Below are positions 3,332-43,130 of a DNA stretch of 43,130 nucleotides, piece after piece (position 1 is the first letter of the stretch; every line of letters starts with the position of its first letter). This stretch comes from Escherichia phage Sciku. The notes beneath the pieces were generated by a model. It made no database searches. It was given only the letters and a program-made list of their open reading frames with translations, and was not told the DNA's origin. The DNA is taken from sequence record MK931439.1. One strand, written 5' to 3'. The position numbers and the translations under genes are program-made.

Positions 3332-3358
3332 AAGGCCCTGTTATGGGGCCTTAGTTTT
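3332..3358. terminator. bidirectional rho-independent terminator
   Basis: AAGGCCC-N7-GGGCCTT hairpin followed by TTTTAT, between convergent portal gene and antisense gene. Confidence 0.6.
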
Positions 3359-3878
3359 ATTTAAATCGTGCGGGTATTAGCACCATAAATGCTGAGTTTG
3401 AAAATGATATTTTGCAACCTCTGGTTTGATCCTGGAAATCGAAACGAGCAATTACATTTTTGTATGCCTTAGAAATCTTGTACGCGTCAGCTAAATACTG
3501 CATAGCGAATCCTATACTATCAACCGCACCTGGCTCGATGCGCGCCACGCGCCTCCAGTCAGGAAAGTTTCCGTCTACAACATCTACCGGAAGTGTACAT
3601 ATAAGAGAACGACTATCGTCATAGAAGGAAACACTGCCGTTGGTATGGTTCACCTCCGCGTAGTTAAATTTAGATGGTTCTCTACCTTTGATGTCTATGA
3701 GAATCCCCTTCTCAACGTTTGTCTTCACATTGTCACAGAACAATCTACGACCATCCGTAGACACTATCAATCCTTCCGGGTCTATGTAAAAAGCGTTCAA
3801 ATAGTAGCGCGCATCATTTTTAGCCCTGCAGATTTTCGCCCCTACATACGCAGGGAAAGTAATAACGGTAGTAATCAT
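3357..3878 (-). CDS. hypothetical protein (antisense moron)
   Basis: 173 aa from ATG at 3878 with AGGAGG RBS 6 nt upstream; opposite strand to all flanking structural genes; no recognisable motif. Confidence 0.55.
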   Translation of the reverse strand: MITTVITFPAYVGAKICRAKNDARYYLNAFYIDPEGLIVSTDGRRLFCDNVKTNVEKGILIDIKGREPSKFNYAEVNHTNGSVSFYDDSRSLICTLPVDVVDGNFPDWRRVARIEPGAVDSIGFAMQYLADAYKISKAYKNVIARFDFQDQTRGCKISFSNSAFMVLIPARFK

Positions 3879-3904
3879 TTTATGCCTCCTGTTTAAGTTA
3901 ACTG

Positions 3905-3934
3905 AATAGTACCCTATTATATTGGTGTCTGCAA
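3905..3934 (-). promoter_or_regulatory. sigma70-like promoter with AATAG-N4-CTATT operator (type B)
   Basis: minus strand: -35 TTGCAG (3934-3929), 17-nt spacer, -10 TACTAT (3911-3906); palindrome AATAGtaccCTATT at 3905-3918. Confidence 0.45.
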
Positions 3935-3978
3935 ATATCATTTTTATGCGTTACACTGACACCACTACAGGAGGGCAT

Positions 3979-5022
3979 ATGAGCTTACTAACATCATTAA
4001 TCAGCCACCAGATTTGGCTGCAACGCACCGCATCCGGTGAAGTGAAGGACCTCACACCATTCATTCAGGAGATGCGAGATGAAATCAAAAGGCAGGTGCT
4101 GTTGTTCGGCGACGACGGGCGGAGCACAGCGCGTCTGAATAAACTATTGCGCGACCTCGAGGAAGCACTTACCGGGCTAACCGGCGACTGGCAGACTAAG
4201 CTGACAGAAGACCTTAAGGAGCTTGCAGCGTATGAGGCTGAGTGGAATGTGAAGACACTCACGGCTAACGTTAATGCGGAATTTGTTACCCCGACCGCTG
4301 AACAGGTGTGGTCCGCCGCCGTGTTTCAACCACTGGCGCTAAGCGAAAAGCCCGTTGACTTCACGAAGCTTATGGAAGGCTGGGGTGAAACGGAAGTAGC
4401 TCGCCTCGTTACCGGCGTTAAGATGGGCTTTGTGCAGGGCCGGACAACACGACAGATTATCAAGAGCGTTGTTGGCAACGGTGGGCTATCGGATAAATCA
4501 GCCAACAACGCCGCCGTTGTAATCCGCACCGCTCTTTCACACGTATCTAACGAAGCCCGTAACGAGACTTATCGACAGAACAGTGACATCATCGAGAAAT
4601 ACGAGTGGGTATCCACGCTTGACAGTCGTACCAGCACAATCTGCAAGGCCAGAGACGGCATGACGTGGGGAATCGGTAAAGGCCCTATGCCCCCAGCCCA
4701 TCCGAATTGTCGAAGTACCACAGCACCTGTAATCAGTTCAGAGTTCTATTTCCTTGACGCGGGCGCAAAACGTGCGGCTAAGGGGGCAGATGGAGGTACA
4801 CAAGTTAGCGCGGATACCACTTATTATGAGTTTCTGAAACAGCAACCAGCGTGGTTTCAGGACCAGGCGTTAGGCCCGGTGCGCGGTAAGATTTTCCGCA
4901 ACAGCGGTATATCGCCGGAAGAGTTTCGCGTAATATCTGTAGATGGTTTCGGGAATCCGCTCACGCTTAAGCAGATGGCGGAACTCGATAAACGTGTTGC
5001 TGATTATCTGAAAGGGGAATAA
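3979..5022 (+). CDS. head morphogenesis / minor head protein
   Basis: ATG at 3979 with AGGAGGG RBS; position after portal typical of Mu F / SPP1 gp7-type proteins; family call is positional. Confidence 0.5.
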   Translation: MSLLTSLISHQIWLQRTASGEVKDLTPFIQEMRDEIKRQVLLFGDDGRSTARLNKLLRDLEEALTGLTGDWQTKLTEDLKELAAYEAEWNVKTLTANVNAEFVTPTAEQVWSAAVFQPLALSEKPVDFTKLMEGWGETEVARLVTGVKMGFVQGRTTRQIIKSVVGNGGLSDKSANNAAVVIRTALSHVSNEARNETYRQNSDIIEKYEWVSTLDSRTSTICKARDGMTWGIGKGPMPPAHPNCRSTTAPVISSEFYFLDAGAKRAAKGADGGTQVSADTTYYEFLKQQPAWFQDQALGPVRGKIFRNSGISPEEFRVISVDGFGNPLTLKQMAELDKRVADYLKGE

Positions 5023-5483
5023 TGATGGGCTTTTTCAAAGTAACTGATGTACCTTCGCGCCGTGTTGTCCAGTACGCCCGCGTGTCAGGCTCCGGCGAGA
5101 ACGTGACCTACGTTGAAGATGAAAGTGTACTGGGTACACCTGTAGACGAGATGCCGTATGCAGATAAAACTGGTATCGCCATCACGGCGGCAGGTATGCT
5201 TTACGAGATTCCGTATCTGGAAGACGCAGGTGACGTGTACTTCTCCGTGCAACCGAAAGACGCGGAACTGGTAGACGGAAGCGCGGTAATCACGGTAGAA
5301 GTTAAGGCGTATAAAGCACCATATTCGCTGACCTGGTACAAAGACGGGAAGGAAGTCGTTAACGCACCAGAAGAAGCTTTGTCTCTGACGGTTAACGCTG
5401 CAGGCGAATACTTCGTTAAAGTTACTGATGCCGATGGTGTAGAGGCTGTGAGTAAAGCGGCGAAGGTTACTAAGCCGGAATAA
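5022..5483 (+). CDS. Ig-like domain protein, possible capsid decoration protein
   Basis: C-terminal YSLTWYKDGKEV...GEYFVKVTDADG resembles an immunoglobulin-like strand pattern; similar motif in 8219-8560. Confidence 0.4.
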   Translation: MMGFFKVTDVPSRRVVQYARVSGSGENVTYVEDESVLGTPVDEMPYADKTGIAITAAGMLYEIPYLEDAGDVYFSVQPKDAELVDGSAVITVEVKAYKAPYSLTWYKDGKEVVNAPEEALSLTVNAAGEYFVKVTDADGVEAVSKAAKVTKPE

Positions 5484-5486
5484 ACT

Positions 5487-5508
5487 AAAGCCCCGAAAGG
5501 GGCTTTTT
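5487..5508 (+). terminator. rho-independent terminator
   Basis: AAAGCCCC-GAAA-GGGGCTTT hairpin followed by TT. Confidence 0.65.
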
Positions 5509-5572
5509 AGCGCCTGTGATTATTCCAGTTATTCCACTCAATTGTAAATGTTGGAATAAACTATTCGAATAG

Positions 5573-5601
5573 TTGACTTTTCACTAAAAATGTGCTAAGC
5601 T
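5573..5601 (+). promoter_or_regulatory. sigma70-like promoter (copy 1 of duplicated promoter-leader unit)
   Basis: TTGACT (5573-5578), 17-nt spacer, TAAGCT (5596-5601); palindrome CTATTCGAATAG abuts the -35 at 5561-5572. Confidence 0.5.
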
Positions 5602-5642
5602 CCACCTGAGCTTGTGAAGTATGAACAAGCGACCGCGGCGCG
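5573..5642 (+). repeat. conserved about 70-bp promoter-leader block, copy 1
   Basis: near-identical to 37503-37572 at a constant offset of 31930; contains a 38-nt identical core CCTGAGCTTGTGAAGTATGAACAAGCGACCGCGGCGCG. Confidence 0.7.
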
Positions 5643-5781
5643 GGCAGGTAACGGAGCGGGACGTAAGTCCTGAGTGTAGTTACGCTGACGCGTTCGGAAG
5701 GGCCATACTCTATTGCTTGTGTAAAAAGTAACTGGTTTACTGAGATTACGCCGTTTCTATGTTTAAATGATAAGGACTAGC

Positions 5782-5808
5782 GCCCAGCTTTAAGGCTGGG
5801 CTTTACTT
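5782..5808 (+). terminator. terminator-like hairpin closing promoter-leader unit 1
   Basis: GCCCAGC-N6-GCTGGGC stem followed by TTTACTT, just upstream of the spanin RBS. Confidence 0.45.
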
Positions 5809-5825
5809 ATCGAGAAAGGAGAAAC

Positions 5826-6212
5826 ATGAATCCTAAAGCAACTGTCGTAGCTGGAGCATGTTTCATCCTCCTGACATACGGCTACGGAATCTACCAGTAT
5901 CGCAGCGGCTGGAACGAAGGCCGGGCGAATCTCGTTTCGCAGCAACAGCAGGAAGCACAGGCTGAGTTAGCGAAGAAAACACAACGGCAGCAGCAGGACG
6001 AATCTAAGGCCGCCGCCGCTGACAACGAAGGCAAGACGAAATCAGAGGTGATTACCCGTGAAGTCGTTAAGTACATTAAAACGCCTGGCCGCAGCGTGTG
6101 CACTTTCGACGATGCTCGCGTCCTGCTCAAGTCCCACGCCGTTGCCAACGCCAATTCCATCCCCGGATACGACGATGATGCAGCCGCCGTGCAAACTGGC
6201 ACCGCCAAGTAG
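5826..6212 (+). CDS. Rz-like inner-membrane spanin
   Basis: N-terminal transmembrane segment VVAGACFILLTYGYGIY then Q/E/K-rich coiled-coil-like region; AAGGAG RBS; Rz1-like gene overlaps in another frame. Confidence 0.6.
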   Translation: MNPKATVVAGACFILLTYGYGIYQYRSGWNEGRANLVSQQQQEAQAELAKKTQRQQQDESKAAAADNEGKTKSEVITREVVKYIKTPGRSVCTFDDARVLLKSHAVANANSIPGYDDDAAAVQTGTAK

Positions 6213-6321
6213 CGACGCTGACGAGGATTTAGCTATCGACGTTCAGAACGCCGAATGTGTACGGCAACTGAGACTGAAAGTGTTCATGTTGCAGGATTAC
6301 GTGAGGAATATTCTGGAATAG
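6058..6321 (+). CDS. Rz1-like outer-membrane lipoprotein spanin
   Basis: lipoprotein signal with lipobox LASC then proline-rich SSPTPLPTPIPSP; starts inside Rz in a different frame and extends past its stop; GTG start assumed. Confidence 0.55.
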   Translation: MKSLSTLKRLAAACALSTMLASCSSPTPLPTPIPSPDTTMMQPPCKLAPPSSDADEDLAIDVQNAECVRQLRLKVFMLQDYVRNILE

Positions 6322-6403
6322 TTGCCTTGCATGTTGGAATAATTTATTCTTGACATGTAAATCCGGGTGGCCCGGGTTCCAACGTCCAGGGGACATACTG
6401 AAT

Positions 6404-7105
6404 ATGAATCGTTTTTTACGTTATCCGTTCCAGGAAGAAGCTGGGGCAGAAGATAAAGCCGGTGGCGGTAGCGCACCGAAAATGTTCACCGCTGAAGAAG
6501 TTCAGGCGCTGATTGAGAAAGAAGTTGCAGGGCTTAAGGCCAATCAGGAAGCATTACTGGCAGAGAAGAAAGAAGCCGCTCGTAAAGCAAGAGAGGCTGA
6601 AGAAGAACGGCAGCGCGCGCACCAGGAGGCGTTAAAGGCCGCTGGTAAGATGGACGAGTTCGAAAAGACGATTCGTAGCCAGTATGACCCGGTGTTAGCC
6701 GAGAAAGATGGCCGCATCTCCAAAATGGCAGAGCGCATCCTCGGTAGCGAACGTAAAGCGGTGTTAGGCTCTTTCGCGGGTGACTTCATTACCCCGGAAG
6801 CAGTAGACATTCTTGCTCCGTTCGTTAAGACTGAGTTTGATGGCGATGATGTGGTTACTAAGTTTGTTGGCGCAGATGGCAACGTAATCACAACTGACCC
6901 GGAACAGTTCCGCAAATACCTGCGTGAACACAAAGCGTTTTCGCATTTGATTAAAGCAAATGCAGCTTCCGGCGGCGGGGCTTCCGGCGGCAAAGGCGGC
7001 GGGGCCGCACCAGCGTTTAAAGACATGAACGAAGCGGAGCGTTTAGCTCTGTACAAATCGAACCCTGCCGAATTTGAACGGCAACTTAAAGCCCTGAGGA
7101 AATAA
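6404..7105 (+). CDS. putative scaffolding protein
   Basis: ATG at 6404; charged helical E/K/A-rich sequence; directly upstream of the capsid gene. Confidence 0.5.
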   Translation: MNRFLRYPFQEEAGAEDKAGGGSAPKMFTAEEVQALIEKEVAGLKANQEALLAEKKEAARKAREAEEERQRAHQEALKAAGKMDEFEKTIRSQYDPVLAEKDGRISKMAERILGSERKAVLGSFAGDFITPEAVDILAPFVKTEFDGDDVVTKFVGADGNVITTDPEQFRKYLREHKAFSHLIKANAASGGGASGGKGGGAAPAFKDMNEAERLALYKSNPAEFERQLKALRK

Positions 7106-7107
7106 TA

Positions 7108-8157
7108 ATGGCAATTACCACTATCGGCGATATCGTAACTGGCAACGTACCCGTCCTTCTGTCCTATATGACTGAGGACCCGGTAGAGAAAACTGCGTTC
7201 TTCCAGTCCGGCATCCTGGCCCCGACCCCGTACGCTGCTGAGATTGCTCGCGGTCCGTCCAACGTCGCTAATATTCCTTTCTGGAAAGCGATTGATACCT
7301 CTATCGAGCCGAACTACTCGAACGATGTATATCAGGACATCGCCACTCCACGCAACGTACAAACCGGTGAGATGATGGCACGCGTCGCTTATCTGAACGA
7401 AGGCTTCGGACAGGCAGACCTGACTGTTGAACTGACCAGCCAGAACCCGCTGCAATCTGTTGCCGCTCGTCTGGATAACTTCTGGCAGCGTCAGGCACAG
7501 CGCCGTCTGATTGCTACCGCTCTCGGCCTGTATAACGACAACGTAACGGCAACCGATGCTTACCACGAGCAGAACGACATGGTTATCGACGTGTCTGCGA
7601 CTCTGGGCTTCGATTCTGGCGCGTTCATTGACGCTACCCAAACCATGGGTGACGCGCTGATGGGTAATGGTGGTGAAGTGCTGGGGGCAATCGCGATGCA
7701 TAGCTTCGTGTATGCGCAGGCGCGTAAGCAACAGCTTATCGACTTCATCCGCGATGCCGACAACAACACCATGTTCGCCACCTACCAGGGCTACCGCGTG
7801 ATTGTTGACGACAGCATGACCGTAGTTGGTACTGACTCTAGCCGTAAGTTCATCTCCATCATCTTCGGCAACGGCGCTATCGGTTATGGCGAAGGCAATC
7901 CGTCCAATCCGCTGGAATACGAGCGTGAAGCGTCCCGCGGTAACGGCGGTGGTGTTGAAACCCTGTGGACCCGTAAGACCTGGTTGCTGCATCCGCTGGG
8001 TTACAGCTTCACCAGCGCGGTAATCACCGGTAACGGTACTGAAACCGTAGCCCGCTCTGCTTCCTGGCAGGACCTGGCGAACGCCTCCAACTGGAACCGC
8101 GTTGTTGACCGTAAGCATGTGCCGATTGCCTTCCTGGTAACTGGTGTAAGGGCTTAA
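7108..8157 (+). CDS. major capsid protein
   Basis: 349 aa ORF after the scaffold gene and followed by a strong terminator; positional call. Confidence 0.65.
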   Translation: MAITTIGDIVTGNVPVLLSYMTEDPVEKTAFFQSGILAPTPYAAEIARGPSNVANIPFWKAIDTSIEPNYSNDVYQDIATPRNVQTGEMMARVAYLNEGFGQADLTVELTSQNPLQSVAARLDNFWQRQAQRRLIATALGLYNDNVTATDAYHEQNDMVIDVSATLGFDSGAFIDATQTMGDALMGNGGEVLGAIAMHSFVYAQARKQQLIDFIRDADNNTMFATYQGYRVIVDDSMTVVGTDSSRKFISIIFGNGAIGYGEGNPSNPLEYEREASRGNGGGVETLWTRKTWLLHPLGYSFTSAVITGNGTETVARSASWQDLANASNWNRVVDRKHVPIAFLVTGVRA

Positions 8158-8173
8158 GGTTAAGTTATAATCG

Positions 8174-8197
8174 AGAGGGACTTCGGTCCCTCTTTTC
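8174..8197 (+). terminator. rho-independent terminator
   Basis: AGAGGGAC-TTCG-GTCCCTCT hairpin followed by TTTCATTT. Confidence 0.65.
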
Positions 8198-12271: not shown

Positions 12272-12429
12272 TATTCCTTCAATTGCATTGGGTAGAAGTT
12301 AACGAGTTCTCCTTTATCCCGAAGCCGTGAATATTCATCTAACGCATCTTGCTGGCTACTCACTGCATAAATATCGTTCCACTCGTCCCATTCTTTGTCG
12401 TATACGCGGATTACATATATTGTTTTCAT
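12271..12429 (-). CDS. small hypothetical protein (moron island)
   Basis: 52 aa ORF MKTIYVIRVYDKEWDEW...; starts 8 nt after the upstream stop. Confidence 0.3.
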   Translation of the reverse strand: MKTIYVIRVYDKEWDEWNDIYAVSSQQDALDEYSRLRDKGELVNFYPMQLKE

Positions 12430-14215: not shown

Positions 14216-14255
14216 GGTGTAGCTCCTGTTCGAGTTAACATTGTTGGTGTAAGTG

Positions 14256-14285
14256 AATAGTATCCTATTATGTTGGGGTGCGCAA
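14256..14285 (-). promoter_or_regulatory. sigma70-like promoter with AATAG-N4-CTATT operator (type B)
   Basis: minus strand: -35 TTGCGC (14285-14280), 17-nt spacer, -10 TACTAT (14262-14257); 26-bp block here is an exact inverted copy of 37811-37836. Confidence 0.5.
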
Positions 14286-14393
14286 GTAATGTGATAGAAT
14301 AATTTTGCGCCTAGTGTCGCACACGAAAAGCGGGTGGTTCCCGTCTGGCGCATTTACCATTAACCTGTAACCTCTTAACCAAAGGATTAAAGA

Positions 14394-27568: not shown

Positions 27569-27856
27569 CTAACTATAATAGTTCGCTATTAGGTCGTCAA
27601 CCTGTTTAAACGAACCAACGACAAAAACATTTGCACCACGTTTACGCATCCGCTCGTGCTCTCGTAGCTGGTGGGGGTCCGGCTTCGTGTTTTCATCTTT
27701 CTTAACCTCGACGAACCAGATGACGCTGCCGGGGAGGATTACCAGCAGGTCAGGGGCGCCCACTCTATTTTCGTACGACAATTTGCGTACGAGGCCCCCC
27801 AGGGCCTCGAATCGGTCTTTTGCGTATTTCTGAACAACTCCTTCTTTAGTCGCCAT
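27569..27856 (-). CDS. VRR-NUC domain nuclease
   Basis: 95 aa with PD-(D/E)xK-like core GAPDLLVILPG...FVEVKK typical of VRR-NUC. Confidence 0.6.
   Translation of the reverse strand: MATKEGVVQKYAKDRFEALGGLVRKLSYENRVGAPDLLVILPGSVIWFVEVKKDENTKPDPHQLREHERMRKRGANVFVVGSFKQVDDLIANYYS
27572..27600 (-). promoter_or_regulatory. sigma70-like promoter with AATAG-N4-CTATT operator (type A)
   Basis: minus strand: -35 TTGACG (27600-27595), 17-nt spacer, -10 TATAGT (27577-27572); palindrome AATAGttcgCTATT 27577-27590. Confidence 0.5.
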
Positions 27857-31398: not shown

Positions 31399-31456
31399 CG
31401 TGATTTCTCGCTTTTAAGTTTCGTTTACTCCGGGAAGCTGCCCGGCCAGTGATTTA

Positions 31457-31485
31457 ACTATAATAGTTTGCTATTCAGGTGTCAA
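31457..31485 (-). promoter_or_regulatory. sigma70-like promoter with AATAG-N4-CTATT operator (type A)
   Basis: minus strand: -35 TTGACA (31485-31480), 17-nt spacer, -10 TATAGT (31462-31457); palindrome AATAGtttgCTATT 31462-31475. Confidence 0.55.
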
Positions 31486-31675
31486 CACTTTATTTACTAT
31501 CTGGGTTAATTACATGCCTTACATCAATCTTACCTTTGTTAACCATTCGGATAATTTTACCCATCTCGTCGTGCATTACCATATTAAATACGCGGCGTAT
31601 CGTTTTGTTTTTACCTAGCTTTGCCCCGTTTCGGTACTGTTCTACGTAGCTTTTTTTGCAATTCTTGAATCGTAC

Positions 31676-33886: not shown

Positions 33887-33916
33887 TGTGTCTCTCCTCT
33901 CGTTTGGTATGGGCTA

Positions 33917-33945
33917 ACTATAATAGCGAACTATTCACTTGTCAA
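33917..33945 (-). promoter_or_regulatory. sigma70-like promoter with AATAG-N4-CTATT operator (type A)
   Basis: minus strand: -35 TTGACA (33945-33940), 17-nt spacer, -10 TATAGT (33922-33917); palindrome AATAGcgaaCTATT 33922-33935. Confidence 0.55.
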
Positions 33946-34009
33946 TGGGTTTTTCTAAAATAATTAATATGGTACTATTCACGCATCAACTAACTAAGGA
34001 GTAACTGAC

Positions 34010-34225
34010 ATGCAACCATCTGAACTAGGCATCCGTGTAGAACAACGCCGTAAAGAACTCGGCATCTCCCAGCGCCGTCTGGCTGTCCTGACTGGCGTTT
34101 CCCAGGGCGCGATTAACCAACTGGCACTTGGGGTAACTCAGGACGTCCGCCCGGCGACGCTGTTTAAACTGGCGGAAGTGCTGGAGATAGACGCCAAGTG
34201 GCTGGCGTTAGGTGAAGGGGCTTAA
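34010..34225 (+). CDS. Cro/CI-type helix-turn-helix transcriptional regulator
   Basis: 71 aa; HTH ISQRRLAVLTGVSQGAINQLALG typical of XRE/Cro family; AAGGAG RBS; only plus-strand gene inside the minus-strand block. Confidence 0.7.
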   Translation: MQPSELGIRVEQRRKELGISQRRLAVLTGVSQGAINQLALGVTQDVRPATLFKLAEVLEIDAKWLALGEGA

Positions 34226-37502: not shown

Positions 37503-37531
37503 TTGACTTTTACTAAGAAATATGGTAAGCT
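37503..37531 (+). promoter_or_regulatory. sigma70-like promoter (copy 2 of duplicated promoter-leader unit)
   Basis: TTGACT (37503-37508), 17-nt spacer, TAAGCT (37526-37531); same architecture as 5573-5601. Confidence 0.5.
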
Positions 37532-37572
37532 CAGCCTGAGCTTGTGAAGTATGAACAAGCGACCGCGGCGCG
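37503..37572 (+). repeat. conserved about 70-bp promoter-leader block, copy 2
   Basis: near-identical to 5573-5642 with the same 38-nt core; weaker similarity continues for about 70 nt. Confidence 0.7.
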
Positions 37573-37717
37573 CGGCAGGCGAAACGAGCACGTGTAGCGT
37601 GTGGAGTGAGGCTCGCTAGCGCGTTTGGGAGGCCCCAAGTCTATTGTAATTCCAGCCTAAGTAGCTAAGTTACTGATTTGCCGTAGGTTAGAACCGCCAG
37701 CTCACTCACTCACTCTT

Positions 37718-37750
37718 GGTGCCTTCGGCACCACGTTCGTTTCGTTTCGC
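37718..37750 (+). terminator. terminator-like hairpin closing promoter-leader unit 2
   Basis: GGTGCC-TTCG-GGCACC hairpin followed by ACGTTCGTTTCGTTTCG; preceded by a (CTCA)x3 repeat. Confidence 0.4.
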
Positions 37751-37800
37751 TCGCTACCCCCCTTAAACGAAAGAATCACAACGGCAACGTAACTAATCTC

Positions 37801-37829
37801 TTGCACACCCCAACATAATAGGATACTAT
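37801..37829 (+). promoter_or_regulatory. sigma70-like promoter with AATAG-N4-CTATT operator (type B)
   Basis: -35 TTGCAC (37801-37806), 17-nt spacer, -10 TACTAT (37824-37829); palindrome AATAGgataCTATT 37817-37830. Confidence 0.5.
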
Positions 37830-37863
37830 TCACTTATCGAAACGAGACAGAGGAGTGAGGGCT

Positions 37864-38733: not shown

Positions 38734-38762
38734 TTGCACGCTGGGGAAGAATAGGATACTAT
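38734..38762 (+). promoter_or_regulatory. sigma70-like promoter with AATAG-N4-CTATT operator (type B)
   Basis: -35 TTGCAC (38734-38739), 17-nt spacer, -10 TACTAT (38757-38762); palindrome AATAGgataCTATT 38750-38763. Confidence 0.5.
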
Positions 38763-38885
38763 TCATTTACACAAACGAGAGGAGAGGCAGAATATGGTTA
38801 CTTTGATGATTATGGAGTTCGAAAACAGCGCTGCAACTTACCGCGACATGTTCAACGAAACGATTAGCTAAGCAGGAGAAATAAG

Positions 38886-39095
38886 ATGGTACAGAGATAC
38901 GAGATAATAAGATGGGGTCTGCCGGAGATGGCTAAGTACCCATACGGTGACTACGTTGAGTATGACAGCTATAAGGAACTGGAGGCCCGACTGGAAGAAG
39001 TCAACGCTGAGTTACAGAAATACAAAGACCAGTTCCCGGATTACGTCGAGTGCGCGAACTGCGGGTCGGTTACACATGTGGAAGGGGTGGATTGA
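38886..39095 (+). CDS. small hypothetical protein, paralog A (MVQRY family)
   Basis: 69 aa; N-terminus MVQRYEI and Y-x-EY-x-SY-x-ELEA pattern shared with the next gene. Confidence 0.45.
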   Translation: MVQRYEIIRWGLPEMAKYPYGDYVEYDSYKELEARLEEVNAELQKYKDQFPDYVECANCGSVTHVEGVD

Positions 39096-39349
39096 TGGTG
39101 CAGAGATACGACTTAACAGAATACTACGTGAGTGGTGCGGTAGATATAACGCCTGTCCCGGACTCGCATGAAGGGCGTTATGTAAGCTACGAAGACTACG
39201 CGCAACTCGAAGCTGAACTCATGAAAGTAAAAGCCGCAGCCCGTTGTCTTGTGCGAGAAGCAGGTAAGGTGTATAGCGATTATAGTGACGTTATAGCACC
39301 TGAGTTTGTAGACCAGCAAACCATACACGAACTAGGTATTCTGTTATGA
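39095..39349 (+). CDS. small hypothetical protein, paralog B (MVQRY family)
   Basis: 84 aa from ATG 39095; N-terminus MVQRYDL; same pattern as 38886-39095. Confidence 0.45.
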   Translation: MVQRYDLTEYYVSGAVDITPVPDSHEGRYVSYEDYAQLEAELMKVKAAARCLVREAGKVYSDYSDVIAPEFVDQQTIHELGILL

Positions 39350-39639
39350 GCCTTGCAACTGACATCCTGAAACGCAGCGGCCTTGCGCCGCTGTCGCCGA
39401 GAGCAAACACTCAGATATACAAGCGCCGCCGTAATACGCTGTACCCAGAGATACAGGAACGACGTAAAGCTATCCGCGCCTGTGGATTCCAGAACGGGAA
39501 GGCCGTGAATCTCGGTGAGTTTAAAACACAAGAACGCGCCGCAATCGCTAATCGACTATTTAATTACTGGAAATCGCTGGGGTACGATGATATTCCGACG
39601 AAACCCCAGAGACGACAATACATCTGGAGGCACAAATGA
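39346..39639 (+). CDS. hypothetical protein
   Basis: 97 aa basic ORF with ATGA overlaps on both sides. Confidence 0.4.
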   Translation: MSLATDILKRSGLAPLSPRANTQIYKRRRNTLYPEIQERRKAIRACGFQNGKAVNLGEFKTQERAAIANRLFNYWKSLGYDDIPTKPQRRQYIWRHK

Positions 39640-40073
39640 CTACTATCGCGTTTGACGGAAAGACGATGGCCTGTGACACCCGAGTAACCGGAGACCACAT
39701 CTACAACACAGATACCAAGATATATGAGAACGAGTTTGTTGTTATCGGTGTAGCAGGCAATGCTGAGGCTGGTATCCTTTTAGTGAAGGACGATAGTATT
39801 TTAGTGCCTAAGCACTACGATTTTGATTTCTCTGCTTTGGTGTGGGTTAAAGACATCGAAACGTTGTGCAAAGTAGAATTCTATAAATCATGGGATTGTG
39901 CACTAAGTTCGGTTATCCCTGTTGCAGATGGTTTTGCCGCCGTCGGTTCCGGTGCACCTTATGCACTGGCGGCTATGTATTTAGGTAATACGGCAACACG
40001 TGCAATTACTATAGCAGAGCAATTCGACCCTAACACCGGCGGCAATATTATTACCAAACAACTATTAGGATAA
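39636..40073 (+). CDS. HslV-like (proteasome-type Ntn-hydrolase) peptidase
   Basis: N-terminal MTTIAFDG with Thr2 as candidate nucleophile; GVAGNAEAG and AVGSGAPYALAA align with HslV GFAGGTADA and GSGGPYAQAA as recalled; 145 aa; GGAGG RBS. Confidence 0.6.
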   Translation: MTTIAFDGKTMACDTRVTGDHIYNTDTKIYENEFVVIGVAGNAEAGILLVKDDSILVPKHYDFDFSALVWVKDIETLCKVEFYKSWDCALSSVIPVADGFAAVGSGAPYALAAMYLGNTATRAITIAEQFDPNTGGNIITKQLLG

Positions 40074-40132
40074 TTCCTAACCGTGCTATCCTCCAGTTAC
40101 TGCATACTTAATACGCACCTGGAGGATTCATC

Positions 40133-40441
40133 TTGGATAAATTTACTGAAACAGTGCCGGTGTGGCTTCTCACCGCCGCACTGGTCGGTGGATTGGTCGG
40201 ACTAAGACAACATAAAAAGTCTATATCCGGTCCAGTCGACGGACTGGTATTTCTTCTCACCGGCTTCGCGTGTGCCGTTTTCGGTGCACCTCTTGCCGCT
40301 CAATGGTTCGGTATTACCGGTGAGCGCGAGATAGCTGGCCTCGGATTCATCATTGCCGTTCTCTGGATGCCTATCTATTCCCGCCTTTCTGGCATTGTCG
40401 CCGGAGAATACATCGCACGTCGCGGAGGTGGCAATGAATGA
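40133..40441 (+). CDS. putative holin
   Basis: 102 aa with several predicted transmembrane helices and a charged C-terminus; immediately upstream of the endolysin. Confidence 0.45.
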   Translation: MDKFTETVPVWLLTAALVGGLVGLRQHKKSISGPVDGLVFLLTGFACAVFGAPLAAQWFGITGEREIAGLGFIIAVLWMPIYSRLSGIVAGEYIARRGGGNE

Positions 40442-40715
40442 GTTATTCTGGTTTGGCGGTATGCTCGCAATCGGGGGCACATCGCTGTTTAACGTATACC
40501 ACCCCAGTGTAGACGATGGCCTGTTTGGTCGTGTGCTGTATATTCTCACTGCTATTGTCTGCGCTGCCGGTTGTATCCACCTGTTACAGGGCAGCGTGTC
40601 ACCAACGTTGCCGGAAACACTAATCACCCTGGTAGCGCTGCGACAGATTCGTCAATCGTGGCTGCATTACCAGTCGAAAGGAGGACATAAGCGTGTCTCG
40701 AAACATTTCAGATAA
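40434..40715 (+). CDS. membrane protein, possible second holin / antiholin
   Basis: 93 aa from ATG 40434; hydrophobic helices FWFGGMLAIGGTSLF and VLYILTAIVCAAGCIHLL; overlaps both neighbours. Confidence 0.4.
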   Translation: MNELFWFGGMLAIGGTSLFNVYHPSVDDGLFGRVLYILTAIVCAAGCIHLLQGSVSPTLPETLITLVALRQIRQSWLHYQSKGGHKRVSKHFR

Positions 40716-41196
40716 TGGATTGCAGTTCAAGAAAGCGTGGGAGAAGTTTCGTGGAACTGCGTACAAAGCCACAAAGAACGAGAAATACTGGACTATAGGC
40801 TGGGGCCATACCGGGCCAGATGTGTACGAAGGGCAGAAGATTACCGAGGGTCAGGGGTTGCTGTTACTTAACCGTGATATGCAGTGGGCGGTGAAAGCAG
40901 TAGACGAGGTGGCGCATCCATCGCTTACCCAGGCCCAGTTTGATGCCGTTGTTGACCTGGTGTTTAACGCCGGAACTGGTGTTATCGCAGCGACTACCGG
41001 AACCGGTAAGGCGCTACGGCAGGGGGACATCGCAGCCTTACGGCACAAGATGAGCCAGTTCATTAACCAGCGCAACCCTAAGACCGGTAAACTTGAACCT
41101 GTTCTGGGCCTGCGCCGTCGTGTAGCGGGTCGCCTGGCGTTGTTCGACGGTAAACCGTGGCAGGAGGCGGAGGATATCGGGAGGGCTGTTAAATGA
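40693..41196 (+). CDS. endolysin, phage lysozyme (GH24-type)
   Basis: EKFRGTAYKATKNEKYWTIGWGHTG matches the catalytic Glu ... TIG-GHTG region of lambda/P22/T4-type lysozymes; QFDAVVDLVFNAG; GTG start with AAGGAGGA RBS. Confidence 0.85.
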   Translation: MSRNISDNGLQFKKAWEKFRGTAYKATKNEKYWTIGWGHTGPDVYEGQKITEGQGLLLLNRDMQWAVKAVDEVAHPSLTQAQFDAVVDLVFNAGTGVIAATTGTGKALRQGDIAALRHKMSQFINQRNPKTGKLEPVLGLRRRVAGRLALFDGKPWQEAEDIGRAVK

Positions 41197-41325
41197 TGGA
41201 CGAATACGAAGGTGTTTAGTATTATGGTTAAGCCAAGTTTTTCGTATTTGCATACTAAGCCTTGGTAAACCTGAAGCAGCAGCCCAAGCGGTGGAGACTG
41301 CGTAGGGTTCAGAGGCTTATGACCG

Positions 41326-41356
41326 AAACCCGGACCGCGAATCCGGGTTTTATTTT
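41326..41356 (+). terminator. rho-independent terminator
   Basis: AAACCCGGA-N7-TCCGGGTTT hairpin followed by TATTTTACC. Confidence 0.55.
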
Positions 41357-41430
41357 ACCATTTGACACCTGAGACTAATCCGACGATACTTAAATCACCT
41401 CCTGCTCCATCCCTCTGCTCTCCAGTTTTA

Positions 41431-41463
41431 TCCCGGCCCTGACCCAGCCGGGATTTTTTTTTT
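41431..41463 (+). terminator. strong rho-independent terminator
   Basis: TCCCGGC-N9-GCCGGGA hairpin followed by a run of 10 T. Confidence 0.75.
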
Positions 41464-41485
41464 ATCTATTTTCTGTAATGACTAG

Positions 41486-41514
41486 TTGACTATTATTCTG
41501 ACACCAATTATATT
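41486..41514 (+). promoter_or_regulatory. sigma70-like promoter
   Basis: TTGACT (41486-41491), 17-nt spacer, TATATT (41509-41514). Confidence 0.45.
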
Positions 41515-41606
41515 TACTCCATCGACGAATCAGCTAATGTTAATATGAGCCTGGATGATTTTATGACTATTGTTGAGCAGGTTCTGGCGTTTTATGGGGA
41601 TGTAAA

Positions 41607-41774
41607 ATGAAAATCACAGATATCGAAGCATTCAAAGATGCACAACTGATGGCACGTATCGCTGTCAGTAACCTGAGCACTACTGTACCAGCGGACGCGT
41701 TCTGGTTCACCGCGATGCAGACACTGAAAGCAGCTTATGCAGGAGAGAAGAAATGGGCGAACAAGGTCAAGTAA
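41607..41774 (+). CDS. small hypothetical protein
   Basis: 55 aa ORF MKITDIEAFKDAQ...; below track cutoff; GGGGA RBS. Confidence 0.35.
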   Translation: MKITDIEAFKDAQLMARIAVSNLSTTVPADAFWFTAMQTLKAAYAGEKKWANKVK

Positions 41775-41914
41775 GCCAACCATTACGCGTAGGCCGTAAA
41801 GTCAGTCACACCCCGTTCCCGACACGCAAGGAACTGATGAAACGTAACAGTTTCCCGGGGCCGGACAAGAACAAGTATCTAAATCGCATGTGGGGAGAGC
41901 GTAAAAATGACTGA
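41753..41914 (+). CDS. small hypothetical protein
   Basis: 53 aa basic ORF with AGGAGAGAAG RBS; overlaps upstream gene in another frame. Confidence 0.3.
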   Translation: MGEQGQVSQPLRVGRKVSHTPFPTRKELMKRNSFPGPDKNKYLNRMWGERKND

Positions 41915-42095
41915 CCGTGAATACGAAAAGATGATGGTAGAGGCCGCGCACGGCAAAACGCAGAACGCTAAAGCCGAAATAGGGATACTTGATAAGTGGA
42001 TAGAAGAACAGGCTCGATACCTTGACCGCCTGATGGAACGCCGCCGTGAACTGATTAACCGGTTCAACCTGAACAAAGGTGACACCAATGCCTAA
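41907..42095 (+). CDS. small hypothetical protein
   Basis: 62 aa ORF; charged helical sequence. Confidence 0.4.
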   Translation: MTDREYEKMMVEAAHGKTQNAKAEIGILDKWIEEQARYLDRLMERRRELINRFNLNKGDTNA

Positions 42096-42327
42096 AATCA
42101 CAATTGCATCGCTCGAGCGTCGTATCCTGGTGCTCGAGTCGGAGAAACAGACGTTAGGCGGGCAACTGTATATCAATGGTGAGTTTCAACTGGAGGCGTT
42201 TAAGTTGCTTCTTGATAAGTTGAGGGAGGACGAAAAGCCTCACGAGCACGATTACTACCTACATGTGGTTGATGGGATACACCAGGCAACGTGCATTAAA
42301 TGTGGTAAAGCGTATGGAGTCGCCTAA
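42088..42327 (+). CDS. small hypothetical protein
   Basis: 79 aa from ATG 42088; C-terminal Cys/His pair HQATCIKCGKAYG. Confidence 0.4.
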   Translation: MPKITIASLERRILVLESEKQTLGGQLYINGEFQLEAFKLLLDKLREDEKPHEHDYYLHVVDGIHQATCIKCGKAYGVA

Positions 42328-42496
42328 ACCAGTAGTCATTGATGGTGTCCTGTGGAAACCATACGCGGTTAACCACATCGACGCCGACGGAAAGAAGTTC
42401 AGCTTCTACATTTTTGCGATTAGCCGTGAGCACGCCGCTTGTGTGGTAGATGATATACGAGAAACGGCGTGGCTTGGCGATGAGATAGTGGGGTGA
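42314..42496 (+). CDS. small hypothetical protein
   Basis: 60 aa from ATG 42314 (MESPKPVV...). Confidence 0.35.
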   Translation: MESPKPVVIDGVLWKPYAVNHIDADGKKFSFYIFAISREHAACVVDDIRETAWLGDEIVG

Positions 42497-42641
42497 GTAT
42501 GTTCGATAATATTGACGCAGCAATCGAAGAAGCAATCTGGCGTCGCTACAACGGTGAGCAACAACGGCACTTCTGCCTGGTGCAGCGCGGTAACATGATT
42601 GCCGTAGTGCAGGACCGCGATAATAAATACCCAAATGCAAT

Positions 42642-42902
42642 GTGGACGACGAGGAATTTCTTAGGATGATTACCAGCATTCCGAACCTGATTAAAGAATA
42701 CGGCACGATGGCGGAGACATGCCGACAAACCGGCATCAATGAAATGACGATTCGCAAGTACAGCAAAGACGTAGACTGCGAGCGCCATGTAATTTATAAC
42801 AACCGCCTGATGACGCACGTCAGGACAAGCCCGGTGTTATTCACACGCCGTGGTATCACGAAGACTGAGCAACGTATCGCACGAGAGGAGGGTGATGTAT
42901 GA
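42642..42902 (+). CDS. small hypothetical protein with possible HTH
   Basis: 86 aa; segment AETCRQTGINEMTIRKYS is HTH-like; start uncertain (GTG at 42642 or ATG at 42666). Confidence 0.35.
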   Translation: MDDEEFLRMITSIPNLIKEYGTMAETCRQTGINEMTIRKYSKDVDCERHVIYNNRLMTHVRTSPVLFTRRGITKTEQRIAREEGDV

Positions 42903-43054
42903 AAAAGTTAACGGTGTACTGGAAGACAGGCGCTACATCAGAACTTGATGTTTTCAGCGTAACGCAATGTGAGAAGTTCTGGTACGCCGAAACATTCAAC
43001 GGTGAAGTGAGAATCCCGTTAGCACTGGTAGACGGCAGGGATATCACCGGGTAA
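42899..43054 (+). CDS. small hypothetical protein
   Basis: 51 aa ORF with GAGAGGAGGG RBS; followed by a terminator hairpin. Confidence 0.35.
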   Translation: MKKLTVYWKTGATSELDVFSVTQCEKFWYAETFNGEVRIPLALVDGRDITG

Positions 43055-43063
43055 CCAACCATC

Positions 43064-43088
43064 AAGCCCTCTACGGAGGGCTTTTCTG
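43064..43088 (+). terminator. rho-independent terminator
   Basis: AGCCCTC-TACG-GAGGGCT hairpin followed by TTTCT. Confidence 0.55.
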
Positions 43089-43130
43089 TACATCCAGCCC
43101 AATCCCCTTATATAATCCCTTTAGACGCGT

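Follow-up and report, generated by a model that had tools for sequence, protein, structure and literature searches.

Clustered TGGAATA(A) half-sites as a conserved putative operator array at two predicted promoters of Guernseyvirinae phages

Short TGGAATA(A) repeats are clustered at two places in the genome of Escherichia phage Sciku (MK931439.1), from which a stretch of 43,130 nucleotides (nt), called the window throughout, was analysed. Here we report that these repeats are non-random and strongly conserved sites of a protein-binding type, placed on two predicted promoters, PA and PB, and that they are probably the operators of a transcription factor. The array, built from the half-site TGGAATAA, extends over both promoters, and we consider it an even call that it is read by a phage DNA-binding protein, for which a NinH-like protein is the best candidate, with occlusion of PB as the favoured effect. 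The outcome is two concrete predicted promoters, a defined operator, TGGAATAA-N-TTATTCCA, and a candidate regulator for the most abundant virion proteins.

The Guernseyvirinae, among them the Jersey-like Salmonella phages and the K1-specific Kagunaviruses, are common in therapy and biocontrol collections, and their transcription programme is essentially undescribed. The literature on Jerseyvirus, Kagunavirus and Guernseyvirinae yielded no mapped promoters or transcript starts, and an RNA-sequencing study of K1B4 gives gene-level classes only, without promoter-level resolution (PMC12645636). We found no description of TGGAATAA sites in the searchable literature, nor a function for the NinH-like gene.

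The window is 99.9% identical overall to the genome of Escherichia phage Shashou (MK931440.1; Kagunavirus, Guernseyvirinae), and positions 5000–7200 are 100% identical. All of the 30 mismatches and the two or three small indels lie past position 12370. About 1.02 kilobases (kb) of MK931440.1 (38849–39868) are missing from the window, which removes or truncates the hypothetical genes 062–065, and window positions 38842–43130 correspond to 39869–44155 of that record; relative to the window, MK931440.1 coordinates are shifted by +1/+2 past 12370 and by about −1025 past 38842. The repeats were compared across 70 related metagenomic loci and several complete phages, and gene co-occurrence was scored in loci extended to ±10 kb.

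Two clusters of repeats

Cluster A lies between the terminator that follows an Ig-like head-decoration gene (5487–5508) and the i-spanin gene (5826). Cluster B is found at the end of the o-spanin gene (6058–6321), directly 5′ of the scaffolding gene (6404) and the major capsid gene (7108). Cluster A contains TTATTCCA at 5520–5527 and 5529–5536 and TGGAATAA at 5552–5559, and cluster B contains GGAATA at 6305, 6315 and 6336, all on the + strand. An initial annotation, made by a model from the sequence of the window, had described two direct copies and one inverted copy at 5520–5559 and three copies in one orientation at 6305–6342, and we find the same positions and orientations. Further copies are present beyond those that it described (TATTC/GAATA at 5562–5571, and TATTC at 6309 and 6345), and the core GAATA/TATTC occurs five times per cluster.

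The exact 8-mer occurs 4 times in 43 kb, compared with 1.25 expected, and 4 of 4 occurrences are inside the two clusters. Genome-wide, clusters A and B are the only 60-base-pair (bp) spans with at least five copies of GAATA/TATTC, the next best having three; none of 1,000 dinucleotide-preserving shuffles of the genome yielded even one such span with five copies, and local shuffles of each AT-rich segment reached five copies in 0 of 5,000 cases (means of 0.29 and 0.26). Because the 8-mers are confined to the two clusters and shuffling never reproduces these, a chance origin is excluded. The comparison with shuffled sequence that the initial annotation had suggested as a check thus comes out in its favour.

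Half-site grammar and conservation

The unit of the array is an 8-bp half-site, TGGAATAA, and paired units are always exactly 9 bp apart; an inverted pair forms the full site, a 17-bp dyad. The dyad is perfect in Enterobacter phage phiEap-2 (TGGAATAAATTATTCCA), and the two dyads of the window, operators O_A (5552–5568) and O_B (6335–6351), have two mismatches each. In phiEap-2, PB carries two dyads that are 33 bp apart and further half-sites fill the spacer of PA. The register of the dyad to the promoters is fixed: the centre lies 13 bp from the PA −35 element both in the window (centre 5560, upstream of the −35 at about −48) and for the perfect palindrome of phiEap-2, and it lies over the PB −10 element in all five clades.

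Across these five clades, the repeat units are among the best-conserved columns, and most spacers and the DNA to the left of the units vary. Conservation in a set of 47 distinct Kagunavirus/Jerseyvirus sequences is at least 90% for TATTCCAGTTATTCC and for the units of cluster A, 50–80% for most of the spacers and 10–40% for the DNA left of the repeats; the TGTAAAT block matches the units in conservation. The direct pair TTATTCCAGTTATTCCA (5520–5536) is identical in Kagunavirus and phiEap-2, and Jerseyvirus differs only at its last, variable base. In an alignment of 7 genomes, the 14-mer GGAATAATTTATTC, shared by Kagunavirus, Jerseyvirus, Cornellvirus and phiEap-2, is invariant, as is the block GGAATAATTTATTCTTG, the neighbouring bases of which vary. 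The same 14-mer is exact in most of the 70 metagenomic loci, some of which have a scaffold protein that is only 51–68% identical.

The sites are confined to clusters, of which there are two in the window and three in phiEap-2. A scan of IMG/VR for the exact palindrome gave 39 loci, with clustered sites only in Guernseyvirinae, one low-GC phage group excepted; the remaining matches look like chance in AT-rich DNA. The low-GC group (L158, L168 and L182; GC of about 0.35) has two tandem intergenic dyads, TGGAATAAT(C/T)TATTCCA, that are 14 bp apart, and no NinH-like gene was present in the stretch fetched for these loci. The same operator sequence may be used there by another system, or the likeness may be a coincidence.

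In the clade of phiEap-2 (L079, 11499–11560; L073, 1422–1480), an inverted copy of the cluster—a dyad, 7 bp and TGGAATAACTGGAATAA—abuts an intrinsic terminator. This copy is at the 3′ end of the operon before it and is not followed by a promoter; not all clusters are therefore promoter-proximal. This terminator-side cluster could be a looping partner or a roadblock.

Position of the sites on two predicted promoters

Beside the repeats in each cluster are −35 and −10 elements that are 17 bp apart (PA and PB; Table 1). PA is predicted to drive a conserved untranslated RNA followed by the spanin genes, and PB the scaffold and major capsid genes. PA is conserved in Jerseyvirus as T(T/A)GACT-17-TGnTA(A/C)GCT, and it has a twin at 37503 that lacks the sites; these are therefore an add-on to an otherwise complete promoter. 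PB matches 8 of 12 consensus positions and has a C in its −10. At the homologous place, distant relatives have TTGCAT-17-TATATT (L063/L132) or TTGTTA-17-TATATT (L060/L129), which are closer to consensus and lie 12–14 nt 5′ of the invariant hairpin CCGGGTGGCCCGG in the 5′ untranslated region (UTR) of the scaffold mRNA. PB is placed at 6322/6345 because these promoters share its register to the hairpin, and we infer that both promoters fire where predicted.

The best repeat of cluster B, TGGAATAATTTATTCTT (6335–6351), covers the spacer and −10 of PB and is not upstream of that promoter; the remaining half-sites are at −36/−43 and −46/−53, in helical phasing with sites 10 and 21 bp apart. The proposal in the initial annotation that the clusters lie upstream of late-gene promoters therefore survives in part: both are at promoters of the structural and lysis region, with cluster B before the scaffold and capsid genes, but O_B covers the promoter itself. 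The same annotation had pointed to a TTGACA at 6350 that lacks a −10, and indeed no −10-like hexamer follows 16–18 nt downstream. The promoter that it built on this hexamer has to be given up, as TTGACA lies downstream of the real −10, is changed to TTGTTA in Jerseyvirus and is absent in distant relatives, and is therefore not a −35. We also considered this hexamer as the −35 of a promoter with a class II activator (−41.5), and rejected it for want of a usable −10 at 16–18 nt and of conservation.

A candidate regulator

That the sites are confined to a few clusters suggests a dedicated factor. Our leading candidate is the NinH-like protein of Shashou (gp78), the only well-conserved Shashou protein in phiEap-2 that has a recognisable DNA-binding domain (68% identical). 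Pfam family PF06322 matches gp78 with E = 5.9e-7 and a borderline score of 29.7 bits against a cut-off of 29.8, homologues of gp78 carry a precomputed PF06322 assignment, and hhalign of gp78 with a manually entered lambda NinH sequence gives a probability of 96% and E = 4e-9. By sequence comparison, gp78 is a NinH homologue. Its AlphaFold model has three helices and a beta-hairpin (pLDDT of 70). A search of solved structures with the gp78 sequence gave no match, and hhalign with Escherichia coli Fis aligned the helix-turn-helix, although not significantly.

Lambda NinH is a dimeric, DNA-binding and DNA-bending helix-turn-helix protein, a mimic of Fis, that prefers a 15-bp G-N13-C dyad; neither a target nor a function is known for it, and its motif is degenerate, with ACCGATCAAGAATTGTGCAT as the consensus oligonucleotide (PMC7166090). 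The perfect dyad of phiEap-2 has the G(−7)/C(+7) of such a 15-bp Fis/NinH-type site, with G2 and C16 13 nt apart and a centre that is all A/T.

Sites and gene occur together. All 37 informative site-bearing loci, which span Kagunavirus, Jerseyvirus, a third clade and the phiEap-2 clade, have the NinH-like gene 0.4–0.9 kb upstream of terS; it is missing from each of the 5 informative loci without sites, which belong to three separate clades (hmmsearch at E ≤ 10, no match), and no informative locus is discordant. Cornellvirus Shemara has both the sites and the gene, and every NinH-positive locus that includes the full 10 kb downstream of the gene carries the PB core. L125 and L131, which lack both gene and sites, hardly differ from clade C across the PB −10 and UTR, but they no longer have the GGAATAG that precedes the −35, and decay is seen in the left half-site of both (GATATTCTTT/GATATTATTT); this is the outcome to be expected when the reader protein has been lost and only the promoter remains under constraint. 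From this pattern we infer, with somewhat less than even confidence, that the NinH-like protein reads the sites.

Other phage proteins were considered as the binder and rejected. No DNA-binding domain is recognisable in gp73, gp74 or gp75, and gp75 is also present in one site-less clade. A Cro-like repressor (34009–34224 in the Shashou record) is only 39% identical in phiEap-2 despite identical operators, and its own divergent promoter region has an AATAG-N4-CTATT family of repeats, not TGGAATAA. An HTH_17 protein (gene 055 of that record) has no homologue in phiEap-2. We also dropped the idea that NinH-lacking phages have a better −35, as their TTGCAT has 3 of 6 consensus matches and TTGCCT has 4 of 6.

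Proposed mechanism and alternatives

We propose that a phage-encoded, sequence-specific protein, with the NinH-like gp78 as the best candidate, would bind the half-site array. As O_B lies over the spacer and −10 of PB, a protein bound there should compete with RNA polymerase, and the capsid operon would come under negative or timing control; this repression would possibly be relieved as replicating phage DNA titrates the protein. The PA sites (at about −48, abutting the −35, and at −75/−85) may serve cooperative binding, a 783-bp loop to PB or activation. Competition with RNA polymerase is the simplest common reading because the dyad is on the PB −10 in every clade and the PA spacer of phiEap-2 is filled with half-sites. 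The sign of the control, repression or activation, is presumed, and for net repression at PB we would put the chances a little short of even. More ambitious, and in our estimate rather unlikely, is the proposal that the NinH-like protein is a sharply specific regulator of the capsid and RNA/spanin promoters across Guernseyvirinae, a whole subfamily of lytic siphophages, acting through direct and inverted TGGAATAA units, possibly as a titration timer.

Several observations weigh against repression by a NinH-like protein. For a gene that neighbours the late genes, an activator would be a biologically more intuitive product than a repressor of the capsid promoter. The direct-repeat pair at 5520–5536 is awkward for a rigid symmetric dimer, and L073 and phiEap-2 each have one cluster beside a terminator, not a promoter. 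At cluster B, the half-sites at 6304–6321 coincide with the final codons of the o-spanin gene and its stop codon (RNILE*), so their conservation within Kagunavirus and Jerseyvirus is confounded by coding constraint; the GGAATAG right before the PB −35 is nevertheless kept in clade C and Cornellvirus Shemara, in which no spanin gene is present there. As for the candidate itself, a fold search with the gp78 model gave weak and generic helix-turn-helix matches, with Fis at ranks 46–48. The operator has A-T at −4/−3 and no pyrimidine–purine steps of Fis/NinH-type sites, and the residue equivalent to Fis Arg85 and lambda NinH Arg30 is an invariant Glu26 in the NinH-like family, so the recognition rule of Fis is not simply transferable. 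Two other proteins from the same small gene cluster, gp73 and gp74 (DUF2737), co-vary identically with the sites. Finally, Klebsiella phage phiKp_24 encodes a 48%-identical NinH-like protein and has no such sites; this more distant phage is uninformative, as is the site-less locus L244.

The main alternative is that the repeats are late-activator sites, as the initial annotation had suggested. That the sites are non-random, conserved and of the kind bound by a factor agrees with this suggestion, and the repressor-type position of the best PB site and the good quality of PA do not. A positive factor, NinH-like or other, would bind just 5′ of the −35 (−36 to −53 at PB; −36 to −48 and −75/−85 at PA) and recruit RNA polymerase to weak late promoters, with the site on the PB −10 playing a secondary part or reshaping the spacer. 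PB is indeed weak, half-sites abut the −35 in both promoters of all site-bearing clades, and the sites are helically phased. Activation is also a better fit to phage biology than competition. Late in infection, the products of the controlled genes are in high demand, and the location of the candidate gene immediately 5′ of the late genes is shared with other phage late regulators. Fis, the protein on which NinH is structurally modelled, acts as an activator when bound upstream. However, the only full PB dyad in 4 of 5 clades is centred at about −14, on the −10; the half-sites that fill the PA spacer in phiEap-2 are likewise out of place for an activator; PA, with a good −35, an extended −10 and an operator-less twin, has no obvious need of one; and relatives that lack NinH keep an equally weak PB (TTGCAT/TATTCT) without sites. 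We give activation a modest chance, well below even.

Alternatively, the phage may exploit the sites of a host protein that is conserved in the Enterobacteriaceae: Fis or another nucleoid protein, or a regulator like IclR or ArgR with TGGAA...TTCCA or GAAT...ATTC dyads as its targets. The operator resembles both the IclR box, TGGAAATNATTTCCA, and the ARG box, TGAATwwwwATTCA, but the ARG box has N4 where the operator has GAAT-N5-ATTC, and the IclR box is 15 bp rather than 17 bp long. Phages of Escherichia, Salmonella and Enterobacter share an identical recognition sequence despite the divergence of their own proteins, a pattern that a host factor would explain. The G-N13-C outline and AT-rich core are as for Fis (PMC7166090), but the pyrimidine–purine steps of Fis sites at ±4/3 are absent. 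Nor would a host factor lead one to expect that the sites occur together with a phage gene cluster, or that the left half-site degenerates in relatives from which this cluster is missing, and we regard this explanation as improbable.

Two further explanations seem to us very improbable. In one, the repeats are core promoter elements, with TGGAATAAT acting as an extended −10 (TGnAATAAT) of extra or divergent promoters. A promoter scan does find TTTACA-18-TGgAATAAT on the − strand at 5548–5519, conserved in Jerseyvirus; phiEap-2 has a − strand gene just beyond the repeats; and TGGAATAAT in PB could act as an extended −10. But a − strand start in the window would run into a terminator within about 25 nt, the final T, which is essential, is missing from several copies (TGGAATAAA at 5552; AGGAATACT in Jerseyvirus), and the dyad symmetry, 9-bp pairing, terminator-side copies and link to phage genes are left unexplained. 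In the other, the site would not be transcriptional at all, but rather a terminase recognition site (pac), an iteron origin or the boundary of a recombination or insertion hot spot. Mixed direct and inverted repeats and a candidate bending protein encoded beside terS resemble cosB/pac architecture, many Kagunaviruses have gene cassettes inserted immediately left of the repeats, and inverted copies of the cluster flank an inserted gene in phiEap-2. Against packaging, the sites are 5.5–6.3 kb from terS, and a site-bearing clade (clade C) and the phiEap-2 clade share a type of TerS (about 30% identity) with site-less clades, so TerS type does not co-vary with the sites and a packaging site is unlikely. 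Against an origin, the cumulative GC skew has its minimum at about 37.5 kb and its maximum at about 24 kb with no switch at 5.5–6.3 kb, a weak test because the skew mostly follows gene orientation. The exact register of the sites to the −35 and −10, which is kept across clades, is also unexpected for a non-transcriptional site.

If repression or other regulation by the NinH-like protein were true, it would be the first biological role for the NinH family, so far represented only by the lambda ‘Fis mimic’ without function or target. Were this protein to be the binder, a widespread orphan phage family would gain a function and a defined target.

Table 1 Features of the repeat clusters, the associated promoters and other elements in the window
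Feature	Position	Strand	Description
Bidirectional intrinsic terminator hairpin	5487–5508	.	Ends the head-morphogenesis/Ig-like operon; adjoins cluster A on the left; stem covaries in relatives
Two direct half-sites, TTATTCCA-G-TTATTCCA	5520–5536	−	9-bp register; centres at about −84.5 and −75.5 relative to the predicted PA start
Block TGTAAAT	5543–5549	+	Conserved, between direct repeats and palindrome; − strand reads −35-like TTTACA
Operator O_A, TGGAATAA-A-CTATTCGA	5552–5568	.	17-bp imperfect palindrome, 2 mismatches to TGGAATAANTTATTCCA
Degenerate extra half-site, TCGAATAG	5565–5572	+	Abuts PA −35; Kagunavirus-specific (AAAAAG in Jerseyvirus)
Predicted promoter PA	5573–5601	+	TTGACT (5573–5578), 17-nt spacer, extended −10 TGcTAAGCT (5593–5601); predicted start at about 5608
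Untranslated transcript region	5606–5808	+	About 200 nt, GC-rich; 5′ hairpin, invariant CGGAAGGGC, covarying terminator-like hairpin (5782–5801)
Two direct half-sites, AGGAATAT and TGGAATAG	6304–6321	+	10 bp apart; about −53 to −36 of PB
Predicted promoter PB	6322–6350	+	−35 TTGCCT (6322–6327), 17-nt spacer, −10 TATTCT (6345–6350); predicted start at about 6357
Operator O_B, TGGAATAA-T-TTATTCTT	6335–6351	.	Centre 6343, about −14; right half contains the −10 hexamer
TTGACA	6350–6355	+	Between PB −10 and PB start; TTGTTA in Jerseyvirus, absent in L129 and L132
Scaffold mRNA 5′ UTR	6363–6394	+	Invariant hairpin CCGGGTGGCCCGG (6363–6375); GTCC-AGG-GGAC hairpin (6384–6394) including the ribosome-binding site
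Scaffolding and major capsid protein genes	6404–8157	+	Unit under PB (predicted); followed by a terminator (8175–8196)
Further promoter stretches	27570–27610, 31455–31490, 33915–33950 (−)		Belong with the sigma-70 promoter families described below
Duplicate of PA core	37503–37579	+	91% identical; core promoter and first ~45 nt of the RNA, without TGGAATA sites
NinH-like helix-turn-helix protein (CPT_Shashou_078, gp78)	42666–42899	+	78 amino acids (aa); about 0.3 kb upstream of terS

RNA elements downstream of the promoters

The untranslated region downstream of PA is conserved from Kagunavirus to phiEap-2, with the i-spanin gene 3′ of it at 5826, and is possibly a small RNA of the phage or else a leader with a regulatory role. 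A 36-aa open reading frame annotated in it (5621–5731) is probably not a gene, because its frame is disrupted between genera by indels of 11, 10 and 2 nt. Rfam had no match at gathering scores in the whole window or in 5480–6420, the best sub-threshold score being 17.7 bits against a threshold of 42. The folding z-score of the RNA is −1.7; only local hairpins, which covary, are supported, the cross-clade alignment being too divergent for a consensus fold. A paralogue of this RNA, with the same promoter and a similar 5′ part, is found in the early region (about 37535–37740), antisense to annotated gene 056, and carries TTTGGGAGGCCC where the PA RNA has TTCGGAAGGGCC.

In the scaffold leader, the hairpin CCGGGTGGCCCGG starts about 6 nt past the predicted PB start. 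Both leader hairpins are kept even in relatives without TGGAATAA sites, and they may control mRNA stability or the translation of scaffold and capsid.

Neighbouring cassettes, other promoters and annotation

A small − strand cassette with its own TTGCAC/TACTAT promoter (3357–3945 in the window, with a sliding-clamp gene; HNH or other genes elsewhere) is inserted at different places among Kagunaviruses. In many of them, it stands directly left of the TATTCCAGTTATTCC repeats in place of the terminator, and the junction is the left edge of the conserved element; in L009–L032 it lies about 90 nt left of cluster A.

The phage has no RNA polymerase gene of its own. An ordinary sigma-70 promoter family, TTGCAC-17-TACTAT-TCA with a conserved spacer ...AATAGGA, is found at about 3890–3945 and 14240–14290 (both −) and at 33955–33990, 37800–37835 and 38735–38770 (all +). 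A stronger set, TTGACA-17-TATAGT, has an AATAG-N4-CTATT dyad in its spacer; two copies of this dyad are found in the promoter region of the Cro-like gene, and the Cro-like protein may use it as its operator.

The record has an annotated 408-nt gap after the endolysin gene (about 41199–41606 in the window; 42224–42631 in the record). The peptide that it encodes, HEHDYYLHVVDG...CIKCGKAYGV, is found again as the C-terminal part of gp76; the gap may hold unannotated coding sequence, or part of gp76/gp77 may be duplicated there.

Comparison with known systems

A repeated intergenic motif with the consensus tgAATAGTa-ccTATTat-T has been described as ‘phage-specific promoters’ in the Kagunavirus fBC-Eco01 (PMC9825357). 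It shares with the sites described here its genus, its intergenic repetition and its GAATAG/CTATT content, but it is a separate family, in which the spacing from GAATA to TATTC is 6 rather than 3, and it is not associated with PA or PB. In the window, motifs of this type are at about 3904, 14255, 33966, 37817 and 38750, and the motif is the reverse complement of the ordinary sigma-70 promoters TTGCAC-17-TACTAT-TCA. The earlier reading of the motif is thus corrected and an unannotated conserved RNA is flagged, both of which are useful for phage engineering.

The arrangement of the sites also recalls ribbon-helix-helix repressors such as omega of pSM19035 and MetJ, which read short, non-palindromic units, direct and inverted, at constant spacing over or next to promoters. 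Their units are spaced by 7–8 bp and those described here by 9 bp, and no ribbon-helix-helix protein was recognised among the genes that co-vary with the sites.

The link to lambda NinH and host Fis is through the homology of the candidate and through the T-G-N13-C-A outline and AT-rich core of the operator. The operator differs from the degenerate motif of lambda NinH in being sharply defined and in having no pyrimidine–purine steps, and the Arg that reads the flanking G in lambda NinH and Fis is a Glu in the Guernseyvirinae family. That family also has four invariant Cys/His residues (C19, C38, H41 and H51), which could form a metal site; not all are present in lambda NinH, which appears to share only the two His.

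The closest architectural parallels are the OR/OL operators of lambda CI/Cro and the A2b/A2c/A3 sites of phi29 p4. Unlike in these systems, the phage here is strictly lytic, the sites are on two promoters only, both in the structural and lysis region, the half-sites include direct repeats on a 9-bp register, and the binder is a candidate from sequence. As in these systems, short dyad sites are present in several helically phased copies, some over the −10 or spacer and others just 5′ of the −35; clusters are 0.5–1.2 kb apart, at which looping would be possible; and one protein could repress one promoter and help another.

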